NCBI GenBank assembly: GCA_963816155.1
Contig: CAWFJE010000002.1
Coordinates: forward strand, 130,980-194,979
Reading direction: 5' to 3'
DNA: 64,000 nt
Origin: an uncultured Actinomycetes bacterium
GTDB taxonomy: Bacteria; Actinomycetota; Thermoleophilia; RBG-16-64-13
The notes below the pieces were generated by a model that saw only the letters and a list, made by a program, of their open reading frames with translations, did no database searches and had not been told where the DNA came from. The translations under genes and the position numbers were made by a program. Shown one piece after another: positions 1 to 59,229 of the stretch. Within the stretch, counting starts at the first letter, position 1. Every line of letters begins with the position of its first letter.

Positions 1-803
1 GTGGCAAGCAGCTTGAGCGCTAGATTGCCGGCCTCAGCGCCCAGGATGGTGACGAACAGGTCGAGGGTCGCCCTGGCGAGTTCGCAGGGCCGGCCGGCGT
101 CGCTCGCCGCCGCGAGGACAGCGGGGGTGGGATCTTCCGACGCGCTTAGCTCTTCGGCCAGCCAGGCCGGCTCGGGAAGGCCGGTGGTCTTCAGATACGC
201 GTACAGGTTGGGGATGCCCAGACCTCCAGAGCAGACCCGCTCGAAGCTCACATGGTCGAACCCCTGGGCGTTCATGTACGCGAGAAGGCCGACCTGCAGC
301 GGGCCCACCGGTGCGAAAGCCGCGTGGCTGCCTTCGCAGCCGTGTGCGTGATAGGCGCCACCGTCATACGTCAAGTACCCCTCCCCGAGACCGGTCCCGG
401 GCGCGAGCACCGCGATGCTGCCGCCGGGCACCCGCGTGCCCGCACTCAGGGTATGGAGGTCCTCTTCTTCGAGCACAGGGATCGCGCAACCGATCGCTCG
501 CATGTCGTTCAGCAGGGCCACTTCAGACCAACGGAAGAACGACTGCAGAGCGGCCCCGTCCACCACCCAGGAAAGGTTCGTGATACGCGCGCGTCGCTCT
601 ATCACCGGGCCGGCCACCCCAAAACACGCGCGGCCTGTATCGATGGGGAACTCCTCGAAGAACTCGCCGATCATGTCCTCGAGCGTCTCGTGCTGCGCGC
701 TTGGATAGGTCTTGCGAGCCAACGCGTCACGCGGGCCCCTCTCGCTGGAGAAGACCGCCAGGATCGTCTTCGTTCCGCCGATGTCACCAATGAGCACGTT
801 CAT
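1..803 (-). CDS. glk: glucokinase (Glk family, PF02685), C-terminus runs off the left window edge
   Basis: Reverse-strand translation gives MNVLIGDIGGTKTILAV...GVAGPV...LNDMRAIGCAIP...AVLAPGTGLGEGYL...HGCEGSHAAFAP...FDHVSFERVCSGGLGIPNLYAYL, collinear with E. coli Glk motifs (VGDVGGTNAR, GAGTGLGVAHL, GEGGHVDFAP, HVSAERVLSGPGLVNLY). The ATG at 803-801 follows the upstream divergent region. Absent from the ORF track because no stop codon lies within the window. Confidence 0.8.
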   Translation of the reverse strand, partial: MNVLIGDIGGTKTILAVFSSERGPRDALARKTYPSAQHETLEDMIGEFFEEFPIDTGRACFGVAGPVIERRARITNLSWVVDGAALQSFFRWSEVALLNDMRAIGCAIPVLEEEDLHTLSAGTRVPGGSIAVLAPGTGLGEGYLTYDGGAYHAHGCEGSHAAFAPVGPLQVGLLAYMNAQGFDHVSFERVCSGGLGIPNLYAYLKTTGLPEPAWLAEELSASEDPTPAVLAAASDAGRPCELARATLDLFVTILGAEAGNLALKLLA

Positions 804-942
804 CGTTATGCTTCCCAGGAGTGGATTGAGTCGACCATATCGATACCCTATCAGAACATGCCGGTCAACCTGTGACCTGAGAGAATACTCCTGCAGAGAC
901 GCGGGTTGTCGAACGGCAAGAGGGTGGCAAAGGAGACAGATC

Positions 943-2424
943 ATGGGCATCCAGTACAACATTCTGCAGCGCGGATTCAGGAATCTCCCGAATGACTCGA
1001 GCCCAACAGGCTTCCAGTTGCTGGTGAAATCCAACTACTACAGGGGCGTGGTGCTGTCGCTCATCGACGATGTAGAGGTGAGTGTGGACGGCGTACGTTT
1101 CGAGCGCAGCCGCATCAGTTTCCAGACGGGAGGGCGGACATACCGGCTCCAGGAGATGGAGCAGGTGAGCGATGTACATTGGCCGTGGCTGGAACCGGCG
1201 ACGCTGATCGTCGACCACCCTGGCGGGCTGACACCGGGGGTACACGACGTGCTCGTGGTCGTGAAGCTCAGGATCTCGTACATGCCGTTCAATCCGCTCC
1301 CGTTCTTCTTCCACGAGAAGCTCGTGCTCATGCCCAGCGCTGATCCCGTCGCAACGAGGGTGGATGCGCCCCGGTTGAAGCTCTCCGCGTCGCTCTACAG
1401 CTACAACGGCGATCTTCAGGCCGGCACCATGACGCTGGAGGACTGTCTGGCCGACTTGTCAGAGATGGGTTGCGAGGGCGTGGAATTCCTTCCGGAGGCC
1501 ATCGTTCCCGACTACCCGGACCCCCCACGATCCTGGCTGAAGCAGTGGTTCGGTTGGATGGACAAGTACCGGCTCACTCCGGTGGCGCTTGACGGAGGAG
1601 CCGATACGAAACTCTACAAGAGCCGCAAGCTGGACGTGGATGAGATCGTCGACTTGATCGTCCAGGACCTGAAGCTGGCCAACACTCTTGGGTGCACGGT
1701 GTACAGGGGTCTGGGTAGTTCCTGGCCGTCCGCGCTCGACGTCTCCGCCAACGTGGGCAAAAAGACCGACTGGAAGGGAGGGATCACCCCTTTCCAGATC
1801 TACGAGAAGTTGCTGCCCTTCGCGGAGAAGTATGACGTGAAGATGGGAGAGGAGCTACACATTCCTTTCCTCATGGAGTCGGATTGGCTCGAGCAGACGA
1901 TCGAACTCATCGACAGAACCGGTACTGAGTATCTTGGGTTCGTTCCCGACCTGAGCATCTTCGCACGGCGTCCGCCTCACCAACTGGACCCCGAGACGCT
2001 GACGGGTGGCGGAATGTCGAGGGAGTTGGTCGATTACATCTACGAGTGTCGCGAGAACCTGCTGCCGGAAGAGGAGGTGAAGAAGAAGGTGATGGAGATG
2101 GGCGCCGGACCGATGGGAATTCCCGTCACCGCCATGATCTACCACCTGACGTATTCGACTAAGGAACGGAACGAAGCGGAGCAGTTGGCCGCACTGGTCC
2201 CCTATAGCGTGCATATACACGCCAAGTTCTGGGAGGTGCTCGAGGACTTGTCCGACGAGCGCAGCATCCCCTACAGCGAGATCGTTCCAGTGCTCGCTCG
2301 CGCGGGCTATTCGAACTACTTCTCCAGCGAGTACGAAGGGGATCGGACGCCATTCGTCGCGTCGAACCAGATCCGGCGGCAGCACCTCATGGTTCGGCAG
2401 ATGTGGGAGTCGGCGGACCGCTGA
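943..2424 (+). CDS. fusion protein: N-terminal ~130 aa DUF6379-like domain (resembles C-glycoside deglycosidase beta subunit) + C-terminal xylose-isomerase-like TIM-barrel sugar phosphate isomerase/epimerase (resembles C-glycoside deglycosidase alpha subunit)
   Basis: RBS AAGGAG 7 nt upstream of ATG 943 (MGIQYNILQRG...). The N-terminal stretch (GFQLLVKSNYYRGVVLSLIDDVEVSVDGVRF...LIVDHPGG) fits the ~130-aa DUF6379 proteins that partner TIM-barrel enzymes. The remainder (EGVEFLPE..., TLGCTVYRG, YSNYFSSEYEGD) is a TIM barrel of the AP-endonuclease-2 / xylose-isomerase-like fold. The longer ORF call from 712 would overlap the glk start. Confidence 0.6.
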   Translation: MGIQYNILQRGFRNLPNDSSPTGFQLLVKSNYYRGVVLSLIDDVEVSVDGVRFERSRISFQTGGRTYRLQEMEQVSDVHWPWLEPATLIVDHPGGLTPGVHDVLVVVKLRISYMPFNPLPFFFHEKLVLMPSADPVATRVDAPRLKLSASLYSYNGDLQAGTMTLEDCLADLSEMGCEGVEFLPEAIVPDYPDPPRSWLKQWFGWMDKYRLTPVALDGGADTKLYKSRKLDVDEIVDLIVQDLKLANTLGCTVYRGLGSSWPSALDVSANVGKKTDWKGGITPFQIYEKLLPFAEKYDVKMGEELHIPFLMESDWLEQTIELIDRTGTEYLGFVPDLSIFARRPPHQLDPETLTGGGMSRELVDYIYECRENLLPEEEVKKKVMEMGAGPMGIPVTAMIYHLTYSTKERNEAEQLAALVPYSVHIHAKFWEVLEDLSDERSIPYSEIVPVLARAGYSNYFSSEYEGDRTPFVASNQIRRQHLMVRQMWESADR

Positions 2425-2444
2425 CCCGTGACAGTGTCCGCAGG

Positions 2445-2783
2445 TCAGAGTAGTTTGGTCGCGTCCGCCTGGCGTGGGGTCTTGACCACCAAGAAGCGAA
2501 AGTCGGCGTCGCTCTCGTTAAACAGGCGATGAGGGACGCGGGCCGGGCTGTGGATCAGCATGTCTGCGGCCACTTCCTCGGTCTCACCCCCGATCTCCAC
2601 TTTGCCGGTGCCTTCCAGGACGTAGAAGAACGCATCCACCGGGGTGAGATGTAGCTTCAGGCCTTCGCCGGGTTTGAGTGTGATCATGCTCACCTGGACG
2701 TGCTCGGTGCTGTGCAGCCCGCGGGCGTCCACGCCGTGTGGGTTCTCGCTTCGTGCGGCTTCACGCGCCTTCACGATCTTCAC
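2445..2783 (-). CDS. cupin domain protein
   Basis: 112-aa ORF with a cupin two-motif core (HSTEHVQVSMITLKPGEG ... FYVLEGTGKVEIGGE ... PHRLFN); convergent with the upstream TIM-barrel gene. Confidence 0.6.
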   Translation of the reverse strand: MKIVKAREAARSENPHGVDARGLHSTEHVQVSMITLKPGEGLKLHLTPVDAFFYVLEGTGKVEIGGETEEVAADMLIHSPARVPHRLFNESDADFRFLVVKTPRQADATKLL

Positions 2784-2821
2784 TGGTCTCTCCTATCGTC
2801 CACGCGATTCCAGAACTGGGC

Positions 2822-3652
2822 CTAGGCCCTCCGAACCTCGATGTCGCCCAGGTTCTGATCCTTGACCGTGGCATCGATGGGACCGAGCTTCTGAGCAAGG
2901 TACCCGGGCTTCTCGATGAGCAGGGTGTAGGTGCCATCGGGGAGGTTCTTCAGCCAGAAGTCGCCATAGTTGTCGGTCTCGGTCGTGGTCTTCTCCCCCG
3001 TGGCCAGGTTGGTGGCGGTTACGGTGGCACCCATGGTGCACTCGTCGGCCTCCCGGTCATAGACGGCACCGGCGATCCACTTCTGGGGCAGGTTGAGGTA
3101 GTAGACCCGTGGGCGAGTGGGAAGCTCGGACTTGAGCAGTTCCGCCCCGGCCATGAGTTCCTTGATGGCGGGGTCGTCGTCATCCCCGAAGGTGAACGCT
3201 CCGGTGGGACAGGCGTCCGAGCATCGGGTCTCGGTCCAGCCCCGATCGAGGAGATGGGCGCAGAAGGTGCACTTCTGGGCGATGCCCAGGTCGTCGTTGA
3301 AATAGATTACGTTCTCGTAGGGGCAGGCCTCCATACAGAGCTGGTTGCCCCGGCACTTCTCGGGATCGATGATGACGATGCCGTCGGACCTGCGGTAGAT
3401 GGCGTTCACGTTGCAGGCGCTGATGCAGGGGGCGTCTTCGCAGTGTTGGCAGATGGAGTGGTGATAGGTGACCTGGACCTTGGGTACGGTGCCCCGCTCC
3501 AAGTTGATGACCTTGTTCCAGAACTGCCCCGTGTCCGGCTGCGGCTTGGCGATGGGAGACCAGTCGTTACCGACGTGCTCATCCTTGCAGGCCACCTGGC
3601 AATTGTGGCATCCGTTGCAGATCGAAAGGTCGATGATCATCACCTTGCCCAT
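2822..3652 (-). CDS. molybdopterin oxidoreductase beta (electron-transfer) subunit: multi [4Fe-4S] ferredoxin domain + C-terminal carboxypeptidase-regulatory-like beta-barrel domain; pyrogallol hydroxytransferase small-subunit-like
   Basis: MGKVMIIDLSICNGCHNCQVACKDEH...CQHCEDAPCISAC...CRGNQLCMEACPY...CTFCAHLLDRGWTETRCSDACPTG gives Cys clusters typical of DmsB-like subunits. The C-terminal TATNLATGEKTTTETDNYGDFWLKNLPDGTYTLLIEKPGY is a CarboxypepD_reg-like fold. The ATG at 3652-3650 overlaps the stop of the alpha gene (ATGA). Confidence 0.8.
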   Translation of the reverse strand: MGKVMIIDLSICNGCHNCQVACKDEHVGNDWSPIAKPQPDTGQFWNKVINLERGTVPKVQVTYHHSICQHCEDAPCISACNVNAIYRRSDGIVIIDPEKCRGNQLCMEACPYENVIYFNDDLGIAQKCTFCAHLLDRGWTETRCSDACPTGAFTFGDDDDPAIKELMAGAELLKSELPTRPRVYYLNLPQKWIAGAVYDREADECTMGATVTATNLATGEKTTTETDNYGDFWLKNLPDGTYTLLIEKPGYLAQKLGPIDATVKDQNLGDIEVRRA

Positions 3653-6252
3653 CAGGCACCGCCTTCCGTGAAGCCGGCCAAGCACGGTCCGGCGCTGATA
3701 TGACATTCCCGAGCGAACGCTTCCGGGTACTGGGCTGTGAGCGCTTCAAGGCTGACCTTCTCCACCTCTGCCAGGAACCCAGAGACCGCATGGCCGCAGG
3801 CGTTCTTGGAGGTGATGTTGCGCGGCACGATGGTGTTGATGGCGCCGCCACGGTCGATCACTCCGGGCACGATCGGGTCATATTTGGCTCCGTGATCCAT
3901 CCCCACAGCGCCCGGGATGATGCGCTCGGTGACATAGGCGCCGGCCAACACCGTCCCCCGCTCGTTGAGGATCGAGACCACGTCTCCGCTCTTGATCCCT
4001 CGGGCTTCAGCATCCACAGGATTGATCCAGAGGGGATGGTACTGGTATCCATCCACACCTCTCACCTTGCATGTCTCGATCTCGCGTAGCCAGGTGATAT
4101 CGTCGTGCTGGGAATGCACCCCCCACCGCGGGTGGTTGCTCATGACCAGAAGCGGATACTTCTTCGAGCGCTCCGTACCGATGGTCTCCTCATGGGAGAT
4201 TCCCTGCGGGATCCATTTGGGCACCGGCGGCCGCTCCAGATCGTCCGGGAAGTGCTCAGCCAAGCCGGTGGCGAAGAACTCGATCTTCCCGGTGGGCGTG
4301 CTCAAGGGGTACTTCTCCGGATCCTCGTAGAAGTTGATGAGCCCCGCGGGGATGCTTTCCCAGTCCGGATCGGTGGGTACGACGTAGTAGCCCTTTTCGC
4401 ACAGATCTTCCCAGGACACCAGAGGCGCCACGCGGGATGTCTCATAACCCAGCCTGATCAACTCGGGGATGGTCCTGCCGCCCGTGTACTCCTCCAGCAT
4501 GCCCAACCGGTCCGCGATCTTGCAGACGATCTCGTAGTCGCTGAAGGACTCCCCCAGAGGCTCGATGCACCTTTCTTCGGGAAACAAGAGGTTCATCTGC
4601 CCGCTGAAGATGTCGCTGCCGATATCGTCCTCTTCCAGCTTGGTGTTGACCGGAAGGATGATGTCGCAGAAGAGAGCGTCGTTCTCGAGCCACGGATGCT
4701 GGCACAGCATGAACTCGATCTCAGGCTTCCTGACCGCCTGTACGTAGTCGTTGCCGCTGTTCCAGCAGGTGATCCAGGAAGGCGAATCAGTCCAGATCAT
4801 GCGGATCTTCGAGCAACCGTCGGCCGGATACTTGTAGTGGACGAACTGGTTCTCGCGCATAGCGAACTCGCATTCGTTGCCCCACCAGTCGATCTCACCC
4901 TCAAGGATAGCCTTGGGAACGAGGCTCTTCGGGATGAACGAGGGATGATTGGTCAAAGCCGGGGTGCTTCCCGTGTAGGCAGCGCCCAGGTGGGTCAGCA
5001 CCGAGGGAGCCGGGGGTGACATCTGCTCCCAGTCGTCGAGGAGGCCCCACTCGATCATCTTCGATTGATTGCAGCCCGGACGGCCCAGACCCTGCATCGC
5101 GAGGCAGAGCACCTGAAGGCGCGCCGGCTCGGTGGCGTACGGGCCGCGGATGCCGGGGCCACCGTTCCCGATGACGACCGTAGTGCGTTTGGAAGCCCAC
5201 TCATCGGCGAGCGCCTTGATGATGCGGCTCGGCACTCCAGTTATGGGCGAAGCCCACTCCGGAGACTTGGGCACACCGTCTTCCGCACCCATGACGTAGT
5301 CCTCGAACTTGTCGACGCCGTAGGCGTGGGTCTCGAGATAGGCCTTGTCGTAGGTGCCGTTCTTGAACCACTGGTGGCAGATGGCCAGATAGAGCGCGGC
5401 GTCGGTGTTGGGGAGGATCGGGATCCACTTGTCGGCGTGCACCGCGTTCGCGTAGTTCACGTCTGGAGCAATGTAGATCTGCTTGATGCCCAGCTCCGTC
5501 CACCAGTAGCTCAGGCGGCTGGTGAGCTGACCCTGCCAGCCCCACACGGTCGTCTCTTGATCGCAGCCCCAGAAGAGAAGCAGTTCAGCGTTCTTGGAGA
5601 TGTCGTAGAGAAGGTTCTTCTGCGGCATTTGCTGACCGACCGGCTCGCATCCCCACACGTGTTTGGCCCCCCACCACCAGCCTTCCCAACTGTCGGCGTC
5701 GCGGACCTGAAGGGTGTAGCCACCCAGCATGGTGAGCAGCTTGCGCATGCAGCCGTGCGGACCGTGGACCACCTTGTTCTCACCGTGCTGGTCGGACTGG
5801 TTGAGGATGGCCGTGGGACCGTAGGTCTCCTGGACACGGAGGATCTCGCTCGTGACCAGATCGAGCGCCTCCTCCCAACTGATGCGGACATACTTGCTGA
5901 CGCCCCGGTTCTGGGGGTTGCGCTCCCCCTTCGGGTCCCAGTCGACCCGTTTCATGGGATACCGGACCCGCCCGGGAGAATAGACGCGCTTCTTGTACGC
6001 GAGACTGATGGGCGGGATGAGGCTCTTGTCACTGGGCTCGAATGTCGAACCCCGGGCATGCATGACCCAGGGCTTGACCTCTTCCTTGGAGTACTTCTCG
6101 TAGTAGCGGGCGGGACGGATACGGATCATCCGGCCGTCCTTGACATCGACCATGCATGCGTTGGCCCCATTGAAGACCCCGCACCAACTGATATCTCGAA
6201 CGAGGGTCGTCTCTCCGGCCGCGTTCGGCGGTCTCTTGACGAACTCACCCAT
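3652..6252 (-). CDS. molybdopterin (bis-PGD) oxidoreductase catalytic alpha subunit, DMSO-reductase superfamily, pyrogallol-phloroglucinol hydroxytransferase-like; no Tat signal and no N-terminal Fe-S Cys cluster
   Basis: Contiguous ~866-aa ORF. Motifs YPMKRVDWDPKGERNPQNRG, DSWEGWWWGAKHVWG, CIEPLGESFSDYEI, VDAEARGIKSGDVVSILNERGTVLAGAYVTE match the transhydroxylase branch. Preferred start is ATG at 6252 (MGEFVKRPP), preceded by AAGGGGGAG at 6 nt spacing. The ORF track's start at 6285 is GTG. Confidence 0.8.
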   Translation of the reverse strand: MGEFVKRPPNAAGETTLVRDISWCGVFNGANACMVDVKDGRMIRIRPARYYEKYSKEEVKPWVMHARGSTFEPSDKSLIPPISLAYKKRVYSPGRVRYPMKRVDWDPKGERNPQNRGVSKYVRISWEEALDLVTSEILRVQETYGPTAILNQSDQHGENKVVHGPHGCMRKLLTMLGGYTLQVRDADSWEGWWWGAKHVWGCEPVGQQMPQKNLLYDISKNAELLLFWGCDQETTVWGWQGQLTSRLSYWWTELGIKQIYIAPDVNYANAVHADKWIPILPNTDAALYLAICHQWFKNGTYDKAYLETHAYGVDKFEDYVMGAEDGVPKSPEWASPITGVPSRIIKALADEWASKRTTVVIGNGGPGIRGPYATEPARLQVLCLAMQGLGRPGCNQSKMIEWGLLDDWEQMSPPAPSVLTHLGAAYTGSTPALTNHPSFIPKSLVPKAILEGEIDWWGNECEFAMRENQFVHYKYPADGCSKIRMIWTDSPSWITCWNSGNDYVQAVRKPEIEFMLCQHPWLENDALFCDIILPVNTKLEEDDIGSDIFSGQMNLLFPEERCIEPLGESFSDYEIVCKIADRLGMLEEYTGGRTIPELIRLGYETSRVAPLVSWEDLCEKGYYVVPTDPDWESIPAGLINFYEDPEKYPLSTPTGKIEFFATGLAEHFPDDLERPPVPKWIPQGISHEETIGTERSKKYPLLVMSNHPRWGVHSQHDDITWLREIETCKVRGVDGYQYHPLWINPVDAEARGIKSGDVVSILNERGTVLAGAYVTERIIPGAVGMDHGAKYDPIVPGVIDRGGAINTIVPRNITSKNACGHAVSGFLAEVEKVSLEALTAQYPEAFARECHISAGPCLAGFTEGGA

Positions 6253-6380
6253 GCCGATCTCCCCCTTGTTCATTGGTCGAATCACTTGGAGTGGCCTGAG
6301 CCACGGTCAGCGTTCCTGGCGTCCACGTTACTGAGCGTACACTAAGGAATTGGGGCGGCTGTGTCAAACCGGCGCGGCCG

Positions 6381-7446
6381 TCAACCCACCGCCACCCGGC
6401 TCTGCATGCGACGCGCGAGCACCACGACCACGGGTATCAGTACCAGGGTCACGCCCACTGCGACCACGAGATCCACCCACACATCGGTGAGGCCCTTGCC
6501 CAGAACACCCACCTGCCAGATAGGATCGATCATCCAGAAGGTGGGGAAGATCTTGGCCACCCACTGGGGCCACTCGGGGAAGAGATAGAAGACCACCGGA
6601 GCAAGGATGAAGATGCCCGCCACCTTCGCCACAGCCATCATGGATACGGCGCTTCGGGCGGTCACGCCGAGAAGGACGCCGAGAATGGTCGCGAAGACGG
6701 AAGACACGAGAAGAACGATGATCATTGCCGGCGCGTTGCCCAGCGCCCCGTTCAGCGCCAGAGTGACCACCGACATGAGGAAGGCCAGGCTCACGCCCAG
6801 CAGCGCCTTCGCGGCGACCGCTTCGGACGCTTTGAGGGGGGTCACCAGCAATGCCGCCATCGTGCCCTTCTCCCCCTCCTCGATCAAACTCGCAGCCGGG
6901 ACGACAACACCCGCCATCACAAGCGCATACATCACCAGCATGGGGACGAGTCGCTCCGCGAGGGGAAGGGCGGCGGCATCGCCGAGAGTCACCAGCTTCA
7001 CGTCTACCGGGGCCTCTTGACCATCCAGGGCACGGACCGCATCCAGGGTGGTCACTTCAAGAATGATGCGATTCGACGCCAGGCTCTCTCCGCCGGCATA
7101 GATCTCCAACGGCGGCCTGCTCTCGGCGGCTATGGCGGCATCGAAATCCGAGCCGAGGACGACACCGACATCGATATCGTTGTTCTGGACGGCCCGTTTG
7201 AGGGCGGCAGCGTCGTCAAAGCGCGTCACCTCGATGTCCTCGGCAGTTGAGAGGGCGGCCGTGATCTGGGACTGCCCCGCATCGACGATCCCCAGGCGCG
7301 GTGTGGGCTCGAACAACGAGCCGAAGACCACCTGCACCAACAGTGTCATAGCGAAGGGCACGATGATCGCGGCCAGGAACAGGGGCGAGCGAGGTCCCAG
7401 CGAGTAGTCCTTGCGCAGCACTCTCCAGATTCGAGCAAGGCTCACA
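6381..7446 (-). CDS. ABC-2 family transporter permease
   Basis: Six-TM ABC-2 type permease with a large N-terminal extracytoplasmic loop. GTG start at 7446-7444 overlaps the upstream stop (GTGA). Confidence 0.7.
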
Positions 7447-8605
7447 GCGATGCGACCTTTCTCTTGAGCGTGAAGCGACCGAGCAGGTAGATGACCACCA
7501 ACCAGGCAAGTAGCGGTATGAAATAGATGGCCACGTCGTCCCATGACTCGCCGTAGGCCGTCACTCTGTGGAGCACCTCTACGAGGCCGTATGTGGGCAA
7601 CACCTTCACCAGCCAAGAGGAAGATCCGGGGAAAATGATCGCGACCGCCGGTATGGCCAGCGGCACGATGAGGAGCATCGTGTACAGCAGGGTGCCGATG
7701 AAATCCTTGGATGCAGCGCCGGTGATCATGGCGACGCCGGCGAACATCACGCCTCCCAGTATCATGGTGAGTAGCAGCAAGGGCCAGTTCGTGAGCGTGA
7801 ACGCCCCCATAGCCGCCAGGATGATGACTCCCTGGCCGGCGGCCATAAGCGCTCCGTAGGCCGTCTTGGCGCCCAGGACATCCCCCAGGCGAGCGGGAGT
7901 CGCGAGTATGGCGATCACCGTGCGCTGTCCGACCTCATTCGAGATCAGCACGGCGAGGGATAGGGTCTCGAGCATCAACACGAAGAAGGCGAAGAGGGCG
8001 CGAAACTGATCGCGCATCGACACCTGGGCGCCGGCTCGATCCTCGCCGAGGACCACCACGGTTTCCGCGGGAAGCGTGACCGGTAACTCATCGCCGCGCA
8101 GCCCATAGGCCAACTCTCGAACGAAACTGGTCATGGCCGCCCGCACGGCCGCTGCCGCCTCGGAGTCGGAGTAGATCACCACCGTGGTCTTCAGGCCTTC
8201 CGCGGTGTCGGCAGCGAAATCCGCGGGAAAGTCGACACCGATCTGCACCGAGACCCTGTCGGCGCCGTCCGGCTTCTCACCGCCGAACACGAAGGTCCCA
8301 TCCCCGGTCTTCCAGACATCGAGATCACCGGTCACCGCGGCCTTCAGGTCGTCGGTGGATGCGAATTCGACGAACGCCAAGCCCTCAGCCCCCGCGTACG
8401 CATCGAGCACCTGGTCCATGTCTTTCTGATGGATTCCAAGGACGAGCGTCTCGTCGACCGAACTGGGCATGATCCAGAAGACGGCCACGAGCACAACGAG
8501 CCCGAGGATGGATATCAGCATGATGAAGCGATTGCGGGAGAACTCCTGCAGGTCCTTGCGAAGGATGGCCGCCACGATGGCGGCGCGGGAAACCGGACGG
8601 CTCAA
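7442..8605 (-). CDS. ABC-2 family transporter permease
   Basis: 387-aa membrane protein (MSRPVSRAAIVAAILRKDLQEFSRNRFIMLISILGLVVL...). Its start overlaps the stop of the ATPase gene. Confidence 0.75.
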   Translation of the reverse strand: MSRPVSRAAIVAAILRKDLQEFSRNRFIMLISILGLVVLVAVFWIMPSSVDETLVLGIHQKDMDQVLDAYAGAEGLAFVEFASTDDLKAAVTGDLDVWKTGDGTFVFGGEKPDGADRVSVQIGVDFPADFAADTAEGLKTTVVIYSDSEAAAAVRAAMTSFVRELAYGLRGDELPVTLPAETVVVLGEDRAGAQVSMRDQFRALFAFFVLMLETLSLAVLISNEVGQRTVIAILATPARLGDVLGAKTAYGALMAAGQGVIILAAMGAFTLTNWPLLLLTMILGGVMFAGVAMITGAASKDFIGTLLYTMLLIVPLAIPAVAIIFPGSSSWLVKVLPTYGLVEVLHRVTAYGESWDDVAIYFIPLLAWLVVIYLLGRFTLKRKVASL

Positions 8606-9468
8606 GCCTCCAGCCCCCTTCCTGTCACGCGGATGAAGATCGACTCCAGCGTCGCTTCTTCGGTGTGAATGGTGAGCAGACCGTCGGACTGCGCGGCGCG
8701 CTTGAGCGCTTCGCCGGTCGCCTGATCATCCAACTCCAGTACCTGTTCGCGTACCCCGGCGCCATCGGCGCGGGTGCGCAGTCGTACCGATCGCCGGCCA
8801 TACTCGAGCTTGAGCGCCTCGGGTGTATCGAGCGCCACGACATGCCCTTCGTTGATGAAGGCGACCCGGTCGGACAGCATATCCGCCTCGAGCATATCGT
8901 GGGTGGTGAGAAGAACCGCCGCGCCACGGGCCGCCTCCTCCTTGATGGTCGTGCGTATGGCGGCCGACGTGGTGGGGTCCAAGCCGTCCGTGGGCTCGTC
9001 GAGGAAGAGGACCTTGGGCCCATTGATGAACGAGCGGGCGATCATCACGCGCTGGCGCATGCCCTTTGAGAAGGTCTTCACCCGATCGTTGGCCCGGTCG
9101 GCGAGCCCCACGCGGCGCAGCACCTCCAGAGCATCGAGATCCTTGATGCCGAACAGGCTGGCGTAGAAGCGCAGATTCTCTTTGGCCGACATATCGAGGT
9201 ATAGGTTCTTCTCCTCGAAGCACACGCCGATCTGCGCCTGTATCTCGCTGTTGTCCTGGCTGATGTCCTGCCCCAAGACCCGGGCGATGCCGGATTGCGG
9301 CGTGAGTTGCCCGGTAAGCACCTTGATGGCCGTGGACTTGCCGGCACCGTTCGGCCCCAGGAAGCCCAAGATCTCTCCCGGCTGAACCGTGAAGCTGATC
9401 CCCTTGAGCGCCTGGATCTTGCCGTAGGAATAGGTCAGGCCTTCGACACTGATGGCGGCTTCGGTCAA
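8602..9468 (-). CDS. ABC transporter ATP-binding protein (ABC-2 exporter ATPase)
   Basis: Walker A GPNGAGKST, signature FSKGMRQR, Walker B VLFLDEPTDGLD, H-loop TTHDM. Probable TTG start at 9468 is preceded by GGAAGGAG at 7 nt spacing. The longer ORF to 9543 lacks an RBS. Confidence 0.85.
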   Translation of the reverse strand: MTEAAISVEGLTYSYGKIQALKGISFTVQPGEILGFLGPNGAGKSTAIKVLTGQLTPQSGIARVLGQDISQDNSEIQAQIGVCFEEKNLYLDMSAKENLRFYASLFGIKDLDALEVLRRVGLADRANDRVKTFSKGMRQRVMIARSFINGPKVLFLDEPTDGLDPTTSAAIRTTIKEEAARGAAVLLTTHDMLEADMLSDRVAFINEGHVVALDTPEALKLEYGRRSVRLRTRADGAGVREQVLELDDQATGEALKRAAQSDGLLTIHTEEATLESIFIRVTGRGLEA

Positions 9469-9550
9469 CGTGCTGCTCCTTCCGTGTTGGCCGCTGAAGG
9501 GCGGACCCATGGACGTTTGCGGGGCACTCCGCGGGCAGCGCACGCGGCAC

Positions 9551-9865
9551 TCACGAGAGCGCCGCCAAGCTCTCAGACCGGTCTACGAGCGCGTGGCGCA
9601 GTTGTTCATAGTCGTACATATGGAGACTACCGGTGGCGGCTCCCAAGATGCGCTCCACAGCTGTTTCGACCGCCCTCAACTTGACCAGCACCAGGCAAAC
9701 CTTGTCGATGTCCCCGATAGACTCGAGCAGCAGCGGCGAGATGGCGCGCGTTGCGCCCATCGACAGCCACATCGTCGCCTCGGCGGCAGCGTCTGGGTCC
9801 GGGCAGTCAAAGACGCCCTCGGCCGAACCATCGCGGACGATGGCGGTTAGAAGTGCCTGCACCAC
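9551..9865 (-). CDS. TetR-family C-terminal ligand-binding-domain-only protein (HTH missing; likely a truncated remnant)
   Basis: 104-aa ORF resembling TetR_C domains. There is no room for an N-terminal HTH because the DUF362 gene ends at 9870. GGGAGGA RBS precedes a GTG start. Confidence 0.4.
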   Translation of the reverse strand: MVQALLTAIVRDGSAEGVFDCPDPDAAAEATMWLSMGATRAISPLLLESIGDIDKVCLVLVKLRAVETAVERILGAATGSLHMYDYEQLRHALVDRSESLAALS

Positions 9866-9869
9866 CGAG

Positions 9870-11117
9870 TTAGTGGATTATCCTCCCCAGCAACGGTTGC
9901 TTTATCGCGATGGCCCGCTCCGGGCACAGCTCTTGACAGCAATAGCAGCGGATACACAGGGCGTAGTCGTGGACGGGCGGCCTCTTCTGGGCGCGCGCTT
10001 CGGGAGTGGCGAATTCCACGGCCTTCGGACTGACCGGGCACACGGCCGCACAGGTGCCGCACGCCGTACACAGGTCCGGGTCGATTGCAGGCCGGGGTAC
10101 CAGCCGGTTCCGGAAGAACCGGCCCAGCGGACCCGCGGTCGTTTCCGTCTCGCCGGTGGTGGACTGTCGCTTGCGGTTCACTACGAAACCCTCGTCGACG
10201 AACGAGTCCACAGAATCCCCCAGGACTTCGATATCGGAGGCCGTGCCCAGGCCGAACTCCTCGCCGTAGGTGATCGTAGGTACCAGAGACACATCGAGAG
10301 CTATGATGCGGCAGGCGACCGTATCGAGGGCGACGGGGTCATCCGAGAAGAGAAGGGCGTGGATGGGACGGGCGTCGCCGCTACGAGGGCCGTTGCCCTG
10401 CATGGCGACAATAGCGTCCATCGCGTAGAGGCGGGGACGCAGCAGCCGGTTGAGGTCCACAATCGCCTGGGCGAGCCGCTCCGGGGTACCCATGCGTACG
10501 TGAAACTCGCCCTTGAGCAGGCCTGGAACGCAGCCGAAGGTGTTCTTGACTGCGCCTGTCATGCGCGTGAGCCCATGGGCCTTCAGTTTGCAGATGGACA
10601 CCAGCCCGTCTGCGTCGAGGGCGCCTACGGCGACGGTGAACTGCTTCATCAGGCGCCCGTCCGGGTAGGAGACCATCCGGCCGGTGGAGAAATCGGCCTC
10701 ATCAATGCCAAACTCGTCAGCGACAGCGGCCAACCCGGCCTTGCGGGCCGCCCCCGCGGCTCGCCCAAAGCCTGGAGAGTCCCCCCAGCTCAGCCGGACG
10801 CCGGCGTCCTTGAGAAGCTGGGCCACCGCACGAAACACGGTCGGGTGAGGACTTACTAGGCCTTCGGGCGTGCTTGCGGCTAGAAGGCCTGGCTTAAGGA
10901 CGATGTATTCACCGGGCCGCACAAATCGGGTGGCGCCCCCGAGCAGATCCAGCCCCCGCCTGGTCGCCTCGAGCACGGCAGCCTCATCGTAATCGGGGCA
11001 GCGGACCAAAGCGACTAGGGCCCGCCCCAGCGCTGTGGATGATGACTCCGCCCCTGTAGCGGGCCATGGACTGGCGACCGTTTCATCCGGGCCTGGACCG
11101 CCTCCCGAGCCGGTCAT
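9870..11117 (-). CDS. DUF362 domain protein with C-terminal 2x[4Fe-4S] ferredoxin motifs
   Basis: MTGSGGG... start with RBS GAGGTGA. DUF362 core (GVPGLLKGEFHV... etc.) plus CTACGTCAAVCP and CIRCYCCQELCPERA clusters. Confidence 0.75.
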   Translation of the reverse strand: MTGSGGGPGPDETVASPWPATGAESSSTALGRALVALVRCPDYDEAAVLEATRRGLDLLGGATRFVRPGEYIVLKPGLLAASTPEGLVSPHPTVFRAVAQLLKDAGVRLSWGDSPGFGRAAGAARKAGLAAVADEFGIDEADFSTGRMVSYPDGRLMKQFTVAVGALDADGLVSICKLKAHGLTRMTGAVKNTFGCVPGLLKGEFHVRMGTPERLAQAIVDLNRLLRPRLYAMDAIVAMQGNGPRSGDARPIHALLFSDDPVALDTVACRIIALDVSLVPTITYGEEFGLGTASDIEVLGDSVDSFVDEGFVVNRKRQSTTGETETTAGPLGRFFRNRLVPRPAIDPDLCTACGTCAAVCPVSPKAVEFATPEARAQKRPPVHDYALCIRCYCCQELCPERAIAIKQPLLGRIIH

Positions 11118-11299
11118 CGACTCACCTCGATGGAGGTGGCAAGCCCCGGCGAGACCGCTGAGACCGGTGGTTTGCCCAGGTAGCTCTTCTGTCTGGCCAT
11201 ACTGACTCCCACTGCAAGGTTTGGTATGTGAATGTTCCCTCGCAAAGTGGTTACTATGCCTCGGCTCTTCGCGCACCCCGCTTCGCTCCGGCCGGGCGT

Positions 11300-11514
11300 G
11301 GGCAACGTTCACCGCCACACTGACCAAGGCGCGTGAGATTGTGCTCGGCAAGCGTCGCATCACCGCAGAGACCGCGCTTCGCCTGGCTCGCTACTTCGAC
11401 ACCACGCCTCAGCTTTGGCTGGGCCTGCAGTCTGACTACGACCTTGACGTCGCGTCGGATGAGATAGGGGCCCGTCTGGAGCGTGAGGTTCGGACGCACG
11501 CTGTGGCGGTGTAG
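11300..11514 (+). pseudogene. HigA-family (XRE HTH) antitoxin remnant; N-terminus degraded, no HigB partner
   Basis: C-terminal ...GKRRITAETALRLARYFDTTPQLWLGLQSDYDL matches the HigA signature. The upstream in-frame sequence is non-homologous. Confidence 0.45.
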
Positions 11515-11706
11515 CACTGCGTCGGGGCAGGCGGAAGCCAAGGCCGGCTCAGGGGCGTATCGCGCACAACAAGTATCATTCCGACAGCCCCCCCGCTCTG
11601 CTACCATGCGAACCTACGCCAATCACTGAGGGAGGCCTTTATCTTCAAGGTAGAAGCGAGTGGACAGGAGTCTTGCGAGCTCCCTCCTAACAGCAGCTTT
11701 GTTCTC

Positions 11707-11991
11707 GTGCGAGTTCCCATTCGCATCGAAGGCGAGGGCCGGCCAGACGAGGCCACTTTTCACTACAGCATCGGTTCATTTCGTGGTCGGGACACCGCCC
11801 TCTCCCTGCGGGCAGGCGCCCAGACCACACTTCGCTTTCGCATCCCCTTGGAACTCTTTCGTTCTCGGGAGCACCTCATCATCACGATCCTTGCTGAGAC
11901 GCCCGGCGGAGAAGAGCGAGTTCTTTGGCTCCAGCGCTGGGAGGCCGCCTGGCAAGGCAAGGCTCCGTCCTTGGAGCCACTGGGCGAATAG
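11707..11991 (+). CDS. hypothetical small protein (94 aa)
   Basis: ORF only; no recognisable motif. Lies in the decayed island. Confidence 0.2.
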   Translation: MRVPIRIEGEGRPDEATFHYSIGSFRGRDTALSLRAGAQTTLRFRIPLELFRSREHLIITILAETPGGEERVLWLQRWEAAWQGKAPSLEPLGE

Positions 11992-12178
11992 GCCAAGCGG
12001 ACCGGCATTCAGCCGGTTGCGGCGCCCACAGGGTGGCGCATCATTTTGGACTAGGGTAGGACGCAAGGGTAGGTGACGTCCGCCCGCAGGGCTTCAGCCC
12101 CGAAGCGCACGGCGGCTAGGAGCGTGTCGGGAAAACCACGCACGTGAAGTCTAGACTCTCCCGGGCCGGGCGGGTAGT

Positions 12179-12390
12179 GTGGCTGGAAACGATCCAGGAG
12201 GCGTGCTCGTGGCCCGGGATTTTCTACCCTATGATCTCGATCAGCAGTATCTCCTTCCCCCCAGCCTGAAAGACTGGCTGCCCGCTGGTCACCTGGTCGT
12301 CTTCGTCTCCGACGTGGTCGACTCCCTGGATCTCTCGGCCGTCATGGACACGTACCAGAAAGACGAGCTTCGCGGCCGCCCCGGATACAA
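12179..12390 (+). mobile_element. IS1182/IS5-type transposase N-terminal fragment (Transposase_InsH_N-like); truncated IS remnant
   Basis: ARDFLPYDLDQQYLLPPSLKDWLPAGHLVVFVSDVVDSLDLSAVMDTYQKDELRGRPGYN matches the conserved N-terminus of IS1182-family transposases (DxxLPYDPxxxLLPPxLxDWLPEDHLAxFVxDVVDxLDLS). Homology ends at about 12388. No DDE domain and no inverted repeats were seen. Confidence 0.6.
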
Positions 12391-12729
12391 CGCTCGCCCA
12401 TCTCGCCGACATCGTCGACTGCTGCGAGGCGATCGCCGCCACTATGCAGGGCGTCGACCGTCACTTACGAGTCCACCCGAACGCTCCGGTCGGCGGTGGA
12501 GCGCGAGTTCCCCGTCATTGGGGAGGCCGTCAAAAGACTGTCGAGGATCGACCCCGCGCTCTCGTCGCGCATCTCCCACGCTCGAATGATCGTCGGCTTT
12601 CGCAATCAGTTTGTTCACGACTGCGTGGCGATCGTCGACAAGGTAGTGGGGACCATCGCCCTGAATGACGCCCCGATTCTGCGGGAAGAGTGCGCCAAGC
12701 TCATCCGGGAATTGCAGGAGCCAGAATAG
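12387..12729 (+). pseudogene. HepT-family (DUF86) toxin, frameshifted remnant
   Basis: Frame 0 reads LAHLADIVDCCEAIAATMQGVD (HepT N-terminal helix). A 1-nt shift near 12455 leads to frame 1: TYESTRTLRSAVEREFPVIGEAVKRLS...IVGFRNQFVHDC... (the Rx4HxY-like motif is degenerate). The MntA partner is absent and replaced by the IS fragment. Confidence 0.5.
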
Positions 12730-12865
12730 TCGAAATCGGCCCGGAAGCTGGAGTGGCCCGTCTGCCGCTCGGCAGTACGTGCCAATGAGCGGGCTCTCGC
12801 CCCAAGCCTCCGGGCCGACTACAATTCAAATGAGGAGAATCCTTCGAGAACACGGGGGGAGAAGA

Positions 12866-13303
12866 ATGGCAGAGAAGAGCTTTACCAAGGAAGATGTGCT
12901 GAAGAAGGTACCCCTATTCAGCAGGTTGAGCAAGAAGAACCTGGTAGAGGTCGTCCGAATAGCGGATGTGGTTGAAGTGCCGGCGGGCAAGGTCTTGGTC
13001 AAAGAAGATACGCGAAGCTTCGAATTCCTCATGATCCTGGAAGGTCAGGCGAAGGCTGAACAATGCGGGAGACTGCTCGGCCGACTCTCCCAGAACGATT
13101 TCTTTGGAGAAATAGGCCTCATCGCGCAGAGGCCTAGCCCAGCTACCGTTACGGCCGAGACTGCCGTGAAGCTCCTTGTGGTAGGGCCGAGGCACTTCGA
13201 GGGTCTGCTCGACAGGGTGCCTGATCTATGGAAGGAAATCGCGATCGCTCTTTGCGACTACATCCCCAGCACCTGTGATTTCCCATTGGAACTGGAGACG
13301 TAA
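12866..13303 (+). CDS. cyclic-nucleotide-binding domain protein (stand-alone cNMP-binding domain, no DNA-binding HTH)
   Basis: RBS GGGGGAGAAGA upstream of ATG 12866. cNMP motif FGEIGLI...RPSPATVTAETAVKLLVV (PF00027). Confidence 0.65.
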   Translation: MAEKSFTKEDVLKKVPLFSRLSKKNLVEVVRIADVVEVPAGKVLVKEDTRSFEFLMILEGQAKAEQCGRLLGRLSQNDFFGEIGLIAQRPSPATVTAETAVKLLVVGPRHFEGLLDRVPDLWKEIAIALCDYIPSTCDFPLELET

Positions 13304-13363
13304 CGCGTAACACGGTGAGTGCGCGCTGGGACTAGGTGAGGCCCTGCGCCAAAGGGAGGCCCG

Positions 13364-13996
13364 TTGAAAAGAGCCCGCAGCACTCGGCGGACGAAGGCTG
13401 AAAGACAGCGAGAGATCGCCGAGGCCACCCTGAAGTTGGTCGCCAGATACGGCGTCCACGGCACGACCGTTTCTCGCATCGCCGCGGCCGTCGGGCTCTC
13501 GCGAGGGGCTCTGTACAAGCATTATTCGAACCGAGAAGCGGTCCTTCTGGCCGCCATGGACCTCATGGATGAGCGACCACCCGGTTGGGTGGCCGGGTCA
13601 TCTGGACCCGACGTCTACAGCCGTCTCCTCGACATGGGTGACCGCCATGCCTCCTGGGCTTCATCTGAATTCGAAACGTTTATCCATCCGCTCTTCGAGT
13701 TCATCGCCGCCGGCAGACAGGGGAGCCTCAGCAAAGAGATGGGCGTGAGGCAACTCAGAGTCCTCGATGCCTTCATCAATCTCGTCGACGAAGGGAAAAG
13801 GGAGGGAAGCATCCGCGCGGAGGTCGATTCCAACGATGTGGCCTGGAGCCTTCTGATGTTTGCCTGGGCAGAGGATGTCGCCCGGCTGATGGGAGTGGAC
13901 CAATTGATCACCAGCGGCGCGTCTAACAGGATCTTCAGGCGTATGCTCGCTGACGTGGCAGCGCTCCCTTCGGGCAATCGAGAGGGCGATTCCTAG
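13364..13996 (+). CDS. TetR/AcrR family transcriptional regulator
   Basis: N-terminal HTH REIAEATLKLVARYGVHGTTVSRIAAAVGLSRGALYKHYSNREAV. Confidence 0.85.
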   Translation: MKRARSTRRTKAERQREIAEATLKLVARYGVHGTTVSRIAAAVGLSRGALYKHYSNREAVLLAAMDLMDERPPGWVAGSSGPDVYSRLLDMGDRHASWASSEFETFIHPLFEFIAAGRQGSLSKEMGVRQLRVLDAFINLVDEGKREGSIRAEVDSNDVAWSLLMFAWAEDVARLMGVDQLITSGASNRIFRRMLADVAALPSGNREGDS

Positions 13997-14158
13997 CGGC
14001 ACCAAGCAGGACTCCCCACTGCATTGACCAGCTTCGTTGTTTCTGCTAGGTTGGTCTTGCTGACTCGGTAAACGACCGTTCACCACGTGGCTCCTTCTGA
14101 ACTGTTGCGTCTCAATCACATTCATCAAGGGGGGCATCATGGAAACGGAGGCGCATCG

Positions 14159-16119: not shown

Positions 16120-16134
16120 CCCCCGGAGGACACC

Positions 16135-17901
16135 ATGCCCGAAGACCGCGCGTACTACGACAGCATGATCAAAGACTACGACCTCGCAGTGCCCATGCGG
16201 GACGGCGTCACTCTACGGGTAGACGTCTATCGCCCGGATGCCCCTGGCAAGTTCCCGGTACTCTACACTTGCGCCTTGCACAACAAAGACCTGCAACGCG
16301 TGGAGGTAGCTGAGAACCTCAAGGTGGGGCAGCCCGCGTGGTCCACTCAGTGGTACGGAGTGGTCGAGGCGGGCGACTCCAAGCGTTTCGTGGCCAACGG
16401 CTACGTCCACGTGATCGGCCAGGTGCGGGGCGGGCACAAGTCCGAGGGCCGGTACGGCGTCGGAGATGACTGGGACCACTACGACGCCATCGAGTGGATC
16501 ACACGCCAGCCTTGGTGCGACGGCAACGTGGGAATGACGGGCATATCTGCGTTCGCGAACGAGCAATGGCGGGCAGCCGCCCAGGGGCACCCGGCGCTCA
16601 AGGCCATCTTCCCGCTGGATTCCGGCGGCTGCTACGGTGGTCTCGAGGGGTTCAGGGACCAGCACCCCGGGGGCGTCATCCAGACCATGCCCTACCATAT
16701 CGGGATGAACAACAGCATGCACACGAACATCGACACCCCGCCGGAGTTACCGCCGCCCCTTGACGAAGCGTGGCAGGCGGCCATGCAGAACCCCGACTAC
16801 ATGATGTACGTGAACCTACACAACATCCTCACCATGCGCGGGCAGCGAGACCCAGGCATGTTCTATCCCCTGCTCTTTCCGTTCGAGCACCCGGGGACCA
16901 TCGAGCGCACCGAAGAGATGTTCCGGAAGATCAAGATCCCCTTTGTCACCGGGGCGTTCGAGGGCGCCTACACCTACAAGATGCATTGGCAGGGGGCGCA
17001 GCACTTCTTCTACGGAGTCGACGCGCCCCACAAGCATCTGTTGATCGCTCCGCCGGCCCACTCGGAGCGCCCGTTCCACGAGTGGCACGATGAGATCATC
17101 CGCTGGTATGACCACTGGCTCAAGGGGATCGACAATGGCGTCGAGGACGACCCCGTCGTGAGGGTCTGGATCCAGGGCGAGAACAGGTGGCGCACCTATG
17201 GCGGCTGGCCCGTCCCCGCAACGCAGTGGACCAAGTTCTATCTGCACAACTGGGAGAAGCTCAGCACCAGAGGCCACCTGCCGGCGGCCCACACCTATGT
17301 CAACGAGCCGCCGGATGCGTTCGTGCAGATGCCCCCGACACAGACCAACAAGATCGAGCGGCTGCGCTACCTCACCGAGCCGCTGGCGGACGAGCTGCTC
17401 GTGGTCGGGCCCATCTCGCTGACCTTCTGGGCGTCCTTGGACGAGGACGACACCAACTGGATCGTTATCCTCAAGGATGTGGGCCCGGATGTCTCCGTAC
17501 AGACGGCGCGGCCCGGGGAGCGCGAGCTCCCCAAAGACCTACCGGAGAGGGAGCTGACCCGCGGGTGGCTCAAGGCCTCCCGCCGCCGGCTCGACCCCGA
17601 GCGCTCCAAACCCTGGAAGCCGTGGCACACGTTGAGCCCCGAGACCATCCAGCCGGTGGTGCCGGGCGAGATCAACGAGTATCAGGTGGAGATCCTTTCA
17701 ACGGCCAACCTGTTCGAGCGTGGTCACCGCATCTGCCTGGAGATCACCAGCCTCGACCTAGCCGAGGGCGTCGCCGGCGAGACTTACGCCGAGTACATGC
17801 CGAACCACGTCTGCTCCAGCAAGACGGTGCTCCATAAGATCTTTCACAACGCGGAGTACCCATCGCACCTGCTGCTGCCGGTGATCCCGCCAGCGGAGTA
17901 G
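16135..17901 (+). CDS. CocE/NonD family alpha/beta hydrolase (peptidase S15 / X-Pro dipeptidyl-peptidase-like) with C-terminal galactose-binding-like domain
   Basis: YTCALHNKD, GMTGISAFANEQW (nucleophile elbow GxSxxA) and a C-terminal beta-sandwich, typical of CocE/NonD. Confidence 0.8.
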   Translation: MPEDRAYYDSMIKDYDLAVPMRDGVTLRVDVYRPDAPGKFPVLYTCALHNKDLQRVEVAENLKVGQPAWSTQWYGVVEAGDSKRFVANGYVHVIGQVRGGHKSEGRYGVGDDWDHYDAIEWITRQPWCDGNVGMTGISAFANEQWRAAAQGHPALKAIFPLDSGGCYGGLEGFRDQHPGGVIQTMPYHIGMNNSMHTNIDTPPELPPPLDEAWQAAMQNPDYMMYVNLHNILTMRGQRDPGMFYPLLFPFEHPGTIERTEEMFRKIKIPFVTGAFEGAYTYKMHWQGAQHFFYGVDAPHKHLLIAPPAHSERPFHEWHDEIIRWYDHWLKGIDNGVEDDPVVRVWIQGENRWRTYGGWPVPATQWTKFYLHNWEKLSTRGHLPAAHTYVNEPPDAFVQMPPTQTNKIERLRYLTEPLADELLVVGPISLTFWASLDEDDTNWIVILKDVGPDVSVQTARPGERELPKDLPERELTRGWLKASRRRLDPERSKPWKPWHTLSPETIQPVVPGEINEYQVEILSTANLFERGHRICLEITSLDLAEGVAGETYAEYMPNHVCSSKTVLHKIFHNAEYPSHLLLPVIPPAE

Positions 17902-17972
17902 TATCGGTCAAGGATCATCGTCCGGTTTGTAGACCTGCTGAAGGAAAGTCGTCATCCACGGCATGGTGGCTT

Positions 17973-59186: not shown

Positions 59187-59229
59187 CCTTCAACCTCCCT
59201 GGTCAGGCCGACGGCTCCGCCGGCCGCCG

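Follow-up and report, generated by a model that had tools for sequence, protein, structure and literature searches.

Does a gene pair with the outward features of a pyrogallol-phloroglucinol transhydroxylase encode that enzyme, or a relative with a chemistry of its own? The question is raised by a locus of an uncultured Actinomycetes bacterium (Thermoleophilia, RBG-16-64-13; assembly GCA_963816155.1), in a 64,000-nucleotide stretch of contig CAWFJE010000002.1 (positions 130,980 to 194,979) that we call the window. On its minus strand, between positions 2822 and 6252, lie the genes for the alpha and beta subunits of a molybdenum enzyme whose best match among all solved structures is, by far, the pyrogallol hydroxytransferase of Pelobacter acidigallici (AthL/BthL, PDB 4v4c/4v4d/4v4e). 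Judged by its sequence, the pair is a soluble, cytoplasmic enzyme of the AthL/RhL branch of the dimethyl sulfoxide (DMSO) reductase family, and it is not orthologous to AthL. It belongs instead to a separate sister clade, here called W, which is very abundant and uncharacterised. The usual database label, pyrogallol hydroxytransferase, is probably too specific for such a W-clade pair.

Family, clade and active site

The alpha subunit (3652..6252, minus strand), assigned from its open reading frame (ORF), Pfam, PDB match and trees, is the catalytic subunit for molybdenum bis(molybdopterin guanine dinucleotide) (Mo-bisMGD) and belongs to the GPW subtype of the W clade. It starts at an ATG preceded by AAGGGGGAG and is 866 residues long, as are many homologous alpha subunits. 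Its N-terminus, MGEFVKRPPNAAGETTLVRDISWCGVFNGANACMVDVKDG, has no RR motif and just two cysteines in the first 60 residues, and extension to the upstream GTG at 6285, which adds MIRPMNKGEIG, brings in no twin-arginine translocation (Tat) motif. Where other family members have a Cys4 FS0 domain, residues 34-87 (5992..6153) match the AhtL-like first domain PF21423 (32.7 bits, cut-off 27). The Molybdopterin (PF00384, 2.3e-21) and Molydop_binding (PF01568, 1.9e-17) domains place the protein in the DMSO reductase (Mo/W-bisPGD, MopB) superfamily, and four features of the AthL/RhL branch are found: PF21423 instead of the Cys4 FS0 domain, no Tat signal, a serine ligand in DSWEGW and a BthL-type beta subunit. 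The latter (276 residues; 2822..3652, minus strand; ORF, Pfam, PDB match) is a ferredoxin-type electron-transfer subunit with a Fer4_11 domain (2.7e-25) and, at residues 193-267 (2852..3076), a BthL-like C-terminal beta-sandwich of the CarboxypepD_reg family (PF13620, 1.1e-14; also seen in the PDB match). Its ATG at 3652..3650 agrees with the 276-residue beta subunit called at a related locus (L001). A preliminary description of this DNA had drawn most of this picture from the letters alone, namely an alpha subunit of about 866 residues without Tat signal or N-terminal Cys4 cluster, a beta subunit with ferredoxin clusters and a C-terminal barrel, and two transhydroxylase-branch motifs, which we located as VRYPMKRVDWDPKGERNPQNRG and DADSWEGWWWG. 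Its translational coupling also holds as an overlap, although the genes share one base, in TGATG, and not the ATGA that it had named.

The alpha and beta genes and their neighbours are genuine, are very strongly supported by the databases and do not represent chance ORFs. Long ORFs of 304 to 426 residues run antisense to beta and alpha on the plus strand (2738-3703, 4105-5019, 5065-6345); these are high-GC artefacts. The same antisense ORF was seen again in 28 related loci (33 ORFs), where it hid beta genes in naive ORF calling. Scans around the operon for promoters, terminators and inverted repeats gave no signal above chance.

In the PDB search, alpha matched AthL at 1e-134 over residues 33-832 and beta matched BthL at 1.4e-50, while DMSO and trimethylamine N-oxide (TMAO) reductases scored 1e-77 and weaker and acetylene hydratase (2e7z) 5.6e-11. 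No NCBIfam model attains its cut-off on alpha (342 versus 1018 bits), the top matches by E-value being bisC_fam and dmsA_ynfE. The AthL/BthL match, together with this lack of any NCBIfam assignment, places the pair in the AthL/RhL branch, and a respiratory DMSO/TMAO reductase was rejected; as the preliminary description had anticipated, the enzyme is neither a DMSO nor a nitrate reductase. Identity is low even so: 38% to AthL, 38% to RhL and 27-28% to DorA, TorA and BisC.

Two trees, both built by neighbour joining (NJ), put the window alpha outside the clade that holds the two characterised enzymes. In the first, bootstrapped with AthL, RhL (its first 400 residues, taken from the supplement of PMC7327174) and DorA/TorA/BisC as outgroups, the W sequences are monophyletic (100/100) and sister to a clade of AthL, RhL and AthL-type paralogues (100/100). 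A scan of 1.84 billion representatives at 50% identity returned full-length relatives at only 38-59% identity, many of which carry Tat signals and Thr-rich linkers. In the full-length tree that includes them, the W clade (100) lies within a supergroup of 27 sequences (100), mostly Tat-bearing, which is sister (84) to the AthL/RhL clade, so that AthL and RhL both stand across the split. The window enzyme is thus a cytoplasmic branch within a radiation that is uncharacterised and for the most part exported. The phylogeny proposed in the preliminary description thus bears out a position outside the respiratory reductases; it does not put the pair inside the AthL/RhL clade, and the nearest relatives beyond the W clade are mostly exported proteins. 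One of these, on an archaeal contig with a TFIIB gene nearby (L084, 519-5904), has a divergent gene for a NarJ-like chaperone upstream and, downstream of the Tat-bearing alpha, a three-site beta followed by a Ser/Thr-rich protein with a C-terminal transmembrane (TM) anchor. In a second, the Tat-bearing alpha is followed by a beta with all four cysteines in group III, next by a 4-TM protein and last by an FMN_bind protein.

The active site tells the same two classes apart. We aligned 102 full-length alpha subunits from 83 fetched loci with AthL (103 counting the window alpha), and they separate sharply into 23 AthL-type sequences, 60-85% identical to AthL, and 80 W-type sequences, window included, at about 40%. 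What the classes share is the core. His144, Asp174, Ser175 and Trp176 of AthL correspond to His156, Asp187, Ser188 and Trp189 of the window alpha and are invariant in all 103 relatives; within the DSWEGW segment (residues 187-192, 5677..5694, minus strand), which contains Ser188, equivalent to the Mo ligand Ser175, the first five residues (D187-S188-W189-E190-G191) are invariant and W192 is nearly so (at least 90%). What differs is the pocket. AthL residues 141-155 read PSSHHMWGNVGYRHS, and AthL-type sequences keep this as ..SHH.WGNvGYRHS, whereas W-type sequences have QsDQHGENKvV[HQ][GA][PC]HG; the window version, SDQHGENKVVHGPHG (residues 153-167, 5752..5796, minus strand), is a W-clade signature by alignment and tree and includes the conserved His156. 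The segment at AthL 350-358 changes from GGLGGWGGACR to IG--NG-GPGIR, and the loop at 553-562 (EFANCSGYIP) and some 22 residues past 405 are kept in AthL-type sequences and lost from W-type ones. Eight AthL positions (H145, W147, Y152, R153, H180, C358, C557, Y560) are invariant among AthL-type sequences and a ninth, W354, is mostly conserved; all nine are replaced or deleted in 80/80 W-type sequences. This conservation pattern is computed from the alignment and does not depend on the roles ascribed to the residues. Of the transhydroxylase active-site residues that had been expected here, then, the His/Asp/Ser core is present and the pocket positions are not. For Tyr404 of AthL the methods diverge: HMMER puts it in the deleted stretch, MAFFT places a nearly invariant Tyr426 one column off, and a structure prediction from 30 homologues, all at least 70% identical, was too poor for use (predicted local distance difference test, pLDDT, 49.7; predicted template-modelling score, pTM, 0.49).

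Homologue searches returned thousands of relatives at 70-92% identity, from uncultured genomes throughout (7006 of 8000 scored candidates lie at E<=1e-50), and a second search, for a cultured host of the W clade, again found uncultured genomes only. Their hosts are Actinomycetota (Thermoleophilia, Gaiellales, RBG_16_64_13), Dehalococcoidia, Desulfobacterota, Acidobacteriota, Aminicenantes and Oscillospiraceae/Flavonifractor, the closest genome being that of Actinobacteria bacterium RBG_16_64_13 (89% identity); an exact look-up of the window protein found no record. Sequences of a second subtype, W:ACW, share 82-93% identity between Desulfuromonadales-like, Chloroflexota, Aminicenantes and Actinomycetota genomes (L059 10007-12595, matches P0121-P0214); so high an identity is unusual between phyla and points to horizontal spread in recent times or to a very strong constraint.

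Cysteines of the beta subunit

The beta subunit of the window has 15 cluster cysteines against 12 in BthL, which has three [4Fe-4S] clusters; a sixteenth lies in the C-terminal domain and is conserved in both beta types. The additional ones are C80 (group II), C100 and C106, and group III reads C100-R-G-N103-Q-L-C106-x3-C110-P, or C-x2-N-x2-C-x3-CP. Aligned with other electron-transfer subunits, its CRGNQLC is similar to CRGWRMC of NarH and CKGHRHC of EbdB, while PsrB has CIACGAC. Groups II and III (residues 68-111, 3320..3451, minus strand) are thus predicted from the alignment to hold a fourth site with three cysteine ligands, which would carry a [3Fe-4S]-like cluster as in NarH and EbdB.

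This pattern follows the alpha class strictly. It occurs in 51/51 W-type betas and in 0/21 AthL-type betas; the beta with the extra cysteines lies directly downstream of a W-type alpha in all 51 cases, its middle position being either N or H, and the beta behind an AthL-type alpha is BthL-like in 13/13 cases by one method and in 8/8 by another. So strict a pairing suggests electron exchange between W enzymes and a partner but is no proof of it.

Within the same loci the beta subunits show other variation. In roughly half of the AthL-type betas, Asp replaces the fourth Cys of group I, giving CCCD (L076 7421-8329, L015, L021, L007), which suggests an Asp-ligated cluster. Some loci are tandem arrays of four to five alphas (one AthL-type, three to four W-type) with only two to three betas (L003 1-12857; L004 and L008 at about 1-18000), and 27/40 GPW alphas have no beta directly downstream; these may share the beta of a neighbour. 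The arrays recall the sequential transhydroxylations that Pelobacter massiliensis reportedly carries out, a link that is speculative.

Genomic company and the proposed reaction

Genomic context in the relatives points towards polyphenols. De novo clustering of neighbour proteins in the 83 loci recovered a Liv-type ABC importer or binding protein in 30, an IclR regulator in 17, an AthL-type alpha or BthL-type beta within 10 kb of the W-type pair in 27, and a gene of the cyclase, 3-hydroxyacyl-CoA-dehydrogenase (HADH) or BKACE families, likewise within 10 kb, in 15. Together with an SDR, these last families correspond to four members of the anaerobic phloroglucinol pathway, PGR, DPGC, TfD and TAL (PMC10470551). 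A common order is [BKACE-cupin-SDR-HADH-cyclase], AthL-type alpha/beta, W:GPW alpha(beta), IclR, W:ACW alpha/beta, and binding protein with ABC importer. For the GPW subtype an AthL-type pair is found in 10/34 loci and phloroglucinol-pathway genes in 7/34. The locus closest to ours (L005) has genes for RidA and a CocE/NonD hydrolase directly upstream and for a TetR regulator, an OYE-like flavoenzyme and a UbiD decarboxylase downstream.

On this basis we lean, with little more than even confidence, towards a W enzyme that acts on the hydroxyls of polyphenol rings with net electron exchange and feeds the pyrogallol/phloroglucinol route. The shared Ser-Mo/His/Asp core, together with a genomic company of phloroglucinol pathway, aromatic-acid-type regulators and importers, UbiD decarboxylase and ester hydrolase, argues for polyhydroxylated aromatics as substrates. 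AthL orthologues and W enzymes are neighbours in these loci and differ in beta type and in conserved pocket, which argues against redundancy. The kept fourth cluster and the exported relatives favour a net electron flow, that is, hydroxylation with water or reductive dehydroxylation. In such a mechanism a polyhydroxylated aromatic would bind as phenolate at the Mo-bisMGD held by Ser188, with His156 and Asp187 as putative acid/base catalysts, and an oxygen atom would shift between molybdenum and a ring carbon, so that the ring is hydroxylated with water or reductively dehydroxylated, or a hydroxyl is transferred. AthL/BthL is redox-neutral; here, by contrast, two electrons would probably pass along a wire of four Fe-S sites in beta (the three-Cys cluster and three [4Fe-4S] clusters) to or from an external partner. 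The product would enter anaerobic polyphenol breakdown by way of its pyrogallol to phloroglucinol route. What we infer here is the class of substrate, a net transfer of electrons and the direction of the reaction.

Several observations weigh against this proposal. The W clade has no biochemically characterised member, a state of affairs even starker than the small number that the preliminary description had noted, and the window itself contains no phloroglucinol-pathway or AthL-type gene. The genomic contexts of GPW genes are variable. In two loci (L081 and L072) the phloroglucinol genes adjoin W:ACW with no AthL-type gene between, a layout compatible with W enzymes making phloroglucinol themselves. 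A fourth Fe-S site is not in itself proof of net redox chemistry; in our set the closest relative of RhL (L045), and so of a known net hydroxylase, has a beta with three sites. Finally, the assignment of catalytic and pocket roles to the AthL residues relies on those reportedly given by Messerschmidt 2004.

The next most likely reading is that of a genuine redox-neutral transhydroxylase, isofunctional with AthL/BthL and using 1,2,3,5-tetrahydroxybenzene as cosubstrate, as routine annotation of metagenome-assembled genomes has it and as the literature labels all such homologues. AthL/BthL is the best PDB match, the Mo ligand and the His/Asp pair are kept, Tyr426 may match AthL Tyr404, and the L081 and L072 layouts would suit it well. 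It nevertheless seems unlikely on the sequences: the 38% identity to AthL goes with a separate clade, the AthL pocket positions are replaced or deleted, the beta keeps a cluster site that all AthL-type betas have lost, and real AthL orthologues (60-85% to AthL) occur in the same loci in 27/83 cases, often adjacent, which argues for different functions. What had been called the hallmark architecture of the transhydroxylase therefore describes the alpha/beta arrangement without Tat signal or FS0 domain and the catalytic core, and does not extend to the pocket, the clade or the beta. Less probable still is that the enzyme acts on an aglycone released by a neighbouring deglycosidase-like protein, in a glycoside/polyphenol catabolic unit. 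The neighbour (943..2424) is a genuine C-glycoside deglycosidase (CGD) homologue and glk adjoins it, yet its gene is convergent with, and outside, the alpha-beta-cupin operon, no homologue of it is found in any of the 83 loci, the ORFs scanned hold no GMC or Gfo/Idh/MocA oxidase domain, and what remains of the window is housekeeping. We rejected the functional unit of deglycosidase and Mo enzyme that the preliminary description had proposed, given the convergent orientation and this lack of linkage.

Two further readings have very little in their favour. An S-/N-oxide reductase of the BisC/DorA/TorA kind is what the NCBIfam top matches and the JGI names of many homologues would indicate, but the scores lie far under the cut-offs, identity to DorA, TorA and BisC is low, the enzyme has a dedicated Fe-S beta with a BthL-type C-terminal domain, and the segment at the Mo ligand is DSWEGW and not of the DorA type; we consider it highly improbable. 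A catechol dehydroxylase of the Eggerthella/Gordonibacter type would perform a like chemistry, ring dehydroxylation by a bis-MGD enzyme, and some of the Gordonibacter enzymes are soluble and Tat-less (PMC7028382), which counts for it. These enzymes (Dadh/Cldh), however, cluster with acetylene hydratase, apart from the transhydroxylase (PMC7028382), and the window alpha matches acetylene hydratase so much more weakly than AthL that this reading was rejected and is scarcely credible to us; a placement with Dadh/Cldh, tested indirectly through acetylene hydratase, was not seen. The remaining probability goes to other functions.

More tentatively than the reaction proposed above, and as a possibility that we hold to be well short of even, the W clade as a whole could consist of electron-coupled ring hydroxylases or dehydroxylases that work beside the true transhydroxylase, either admitting other phenols or making and recycling 1,2,3,5-tetrahydroxybenzene. 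If so, hydroxyhydroquinone, catechols and gallate-type acids could be among the phenols that enter the phloroglucinol pathway, and the clade would represent an unrecognised and very widespread step of anaerobic polyphenol degradation in soils, sediments and guts. The searchable literature calls such genes pyrogallol hydroxytransferase or pgthAB throughout, and a family survey lumps the enzymes as RhL/PgtL; we found no paper that separates the W clade, describes a characterised W-type enzyme or notes a four-site beta, which is weak evidence given the sparse coverage of subscription papers. The homologues are among the commonest 'pyrogallol hydroxytransferase' annotations in metagenome-assembled genomes, and it is from such annotations that the anaerobic turnover of tannins and polyphenols is deduced for aquifers, peat and permafrost. 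Should the W reaction differ from that of AthL, these inferences would conflate at least two enzymes and a new entry point to the phloroglucinol pathway would have to be defined, with a bearing on the mobilisation of phenolic carbon without O2 and on the 'enzyme latch' debate (PMC10470551). Because of the size of the clade, one characterised member would annotate thousands of genes. The W clade and its four-site beta are a solid lead, not a surprise on the scale of a new system.

Neighbourhood of the pair and comparison with known systems

Pfam confirmed all the neighbours named in the preliminary description. Beta is followed, after 38 nt, by the gene for a Cupin_2 protein of 112 residues (2445..2783, also minus strand), which is probably co-transcribed with the pair. 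On the other side lie two ABC-2 permeases with an ATPase (9543..6381, minus strand) and a DUF362+Fer4 protein (11363..9870, minus strand), and glk (PF02685, 1.8e-65) runs off the start of the window (803..<1, minus strand). Homologues of the CGD fusion, the cupin, the ABC-2 permease and the DUF362 protein were found in 0/83 related loci.

The protein encoded at 943..2424 on the plus strand, convergent with the alpha-beta-cupin unit and hence in a separate operon, fuses a CGD beta-subunit domain (PF19906) to a TIM-barrel alpha subunit in one polypeptide. Its best PDB match is a single chain of 435 residues (8qrz_A, 1e-59), followed by DgpC/DgpB, DfgA/B and CarB/C. The sugar C3-oxidases that partner such proteins (CarA/DgpA-like) belong to the GMC or Gfo/Idh/MocA families, and no domain of either kind was found in the ORFs scanned in the 64-kb window; with no C3-oxidase found and no conserved linkage, the locus does not qualify as a C-glycoside catabolic locus of the CarABC/DgpABC type.

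Further along, between 13364 and 17898 on the plus strand, lie genes for a TetR regulator (13364..13993), a small 2x[4Fe-4S] ferredoxin, a fumarate-reductase-like FAD flavoprotein and a CocE/NonD (S15) hydrolase (16135..17898), which may be functionally linked to the Mo enzyme. An 88% orthologue of this hydrolase lies 2 kb upstream of a GPW alpha in another locus (L024), while the family member directly upstream of the alpha in the closest locus is more distant (27%); homologues of the TetR regulator stand beside GPW alphas in four loci (L002, L005, L027, L028). Past about 18 kb the window is housekeeping, with purine synthesis, DnaB, S6/SSB/L9 and Lon. The replicative helicase DnaB is split by an intein with a LAGLIDADG endonuclease domain (40394-43033, minus strand); a 1057-residue protein (19304-22477, minus strand) fuses an N-terminal HAD hydrolase, beta-phosphoglucomutase-like, to a complete GH65 phosphorylase; and at 58314-60582 (minus strand) a LigB/Memo-like protein adjoins a radical SAM protein, an AmmeMemoRadiSam-like pair apparently unrelated to the Mo enzyme.

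Among known systems, the Tat-exported relatives (P0217 and P0221, for example) are the closest to the window enzyme outside the W clade (40-54% identity) and have the same alpha/beta architecture, CarboxypepD_reg domain included. They differ in their Tat signals and Thr-rich linkers and in their neighbours, a NarJ-like chaperone or 4-TM and FMN_bind proteins, and several have no Asp at the position of AthL Asp174. NarH and EbdB, beta subunits of the type II DMSO reductase family, resemble the window beta in group III (C-x2-[non-Cys]-x2-C-x3-CP) and in the fourth group II cysteine. Their FS4 is a [3Fe-4S] cluster, and PsrB has four [4Fe-4S] clusters. In the NarH and EbdB enzymes, alpha bears FS0 and has an Asp ligand, and a gamma subunit carries haem b; the window pair has neither such an alpha nor a gamma subunit. 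AthL/BthL (PgtL) is a cytoplasmic alpha/beta heterodimer like the window pair, with PF21423 for FS0, the Ser ligand in DSWEGW and the conserved His and Asp, and both betas have Fer4_11 and a C-terminal beta-sandwich, the two pairs aligning along their whole length; the distance in identity and clade, the altered and missing pocket segments and the fourth beta site set the two pairs apart. RhL/RhS of Azoarcus (Aromatoleum) anaerobius belongs to the same family, and its RhL differs from the window alpha over its first 400 residues in carrying the AthL-type signature SHHQWGNIGYY and in grouping with AthL. RhL is, however, a net hydroxylase that passes its electrons to an acceptor, which is the chemistry that we propose for the window enzyme.

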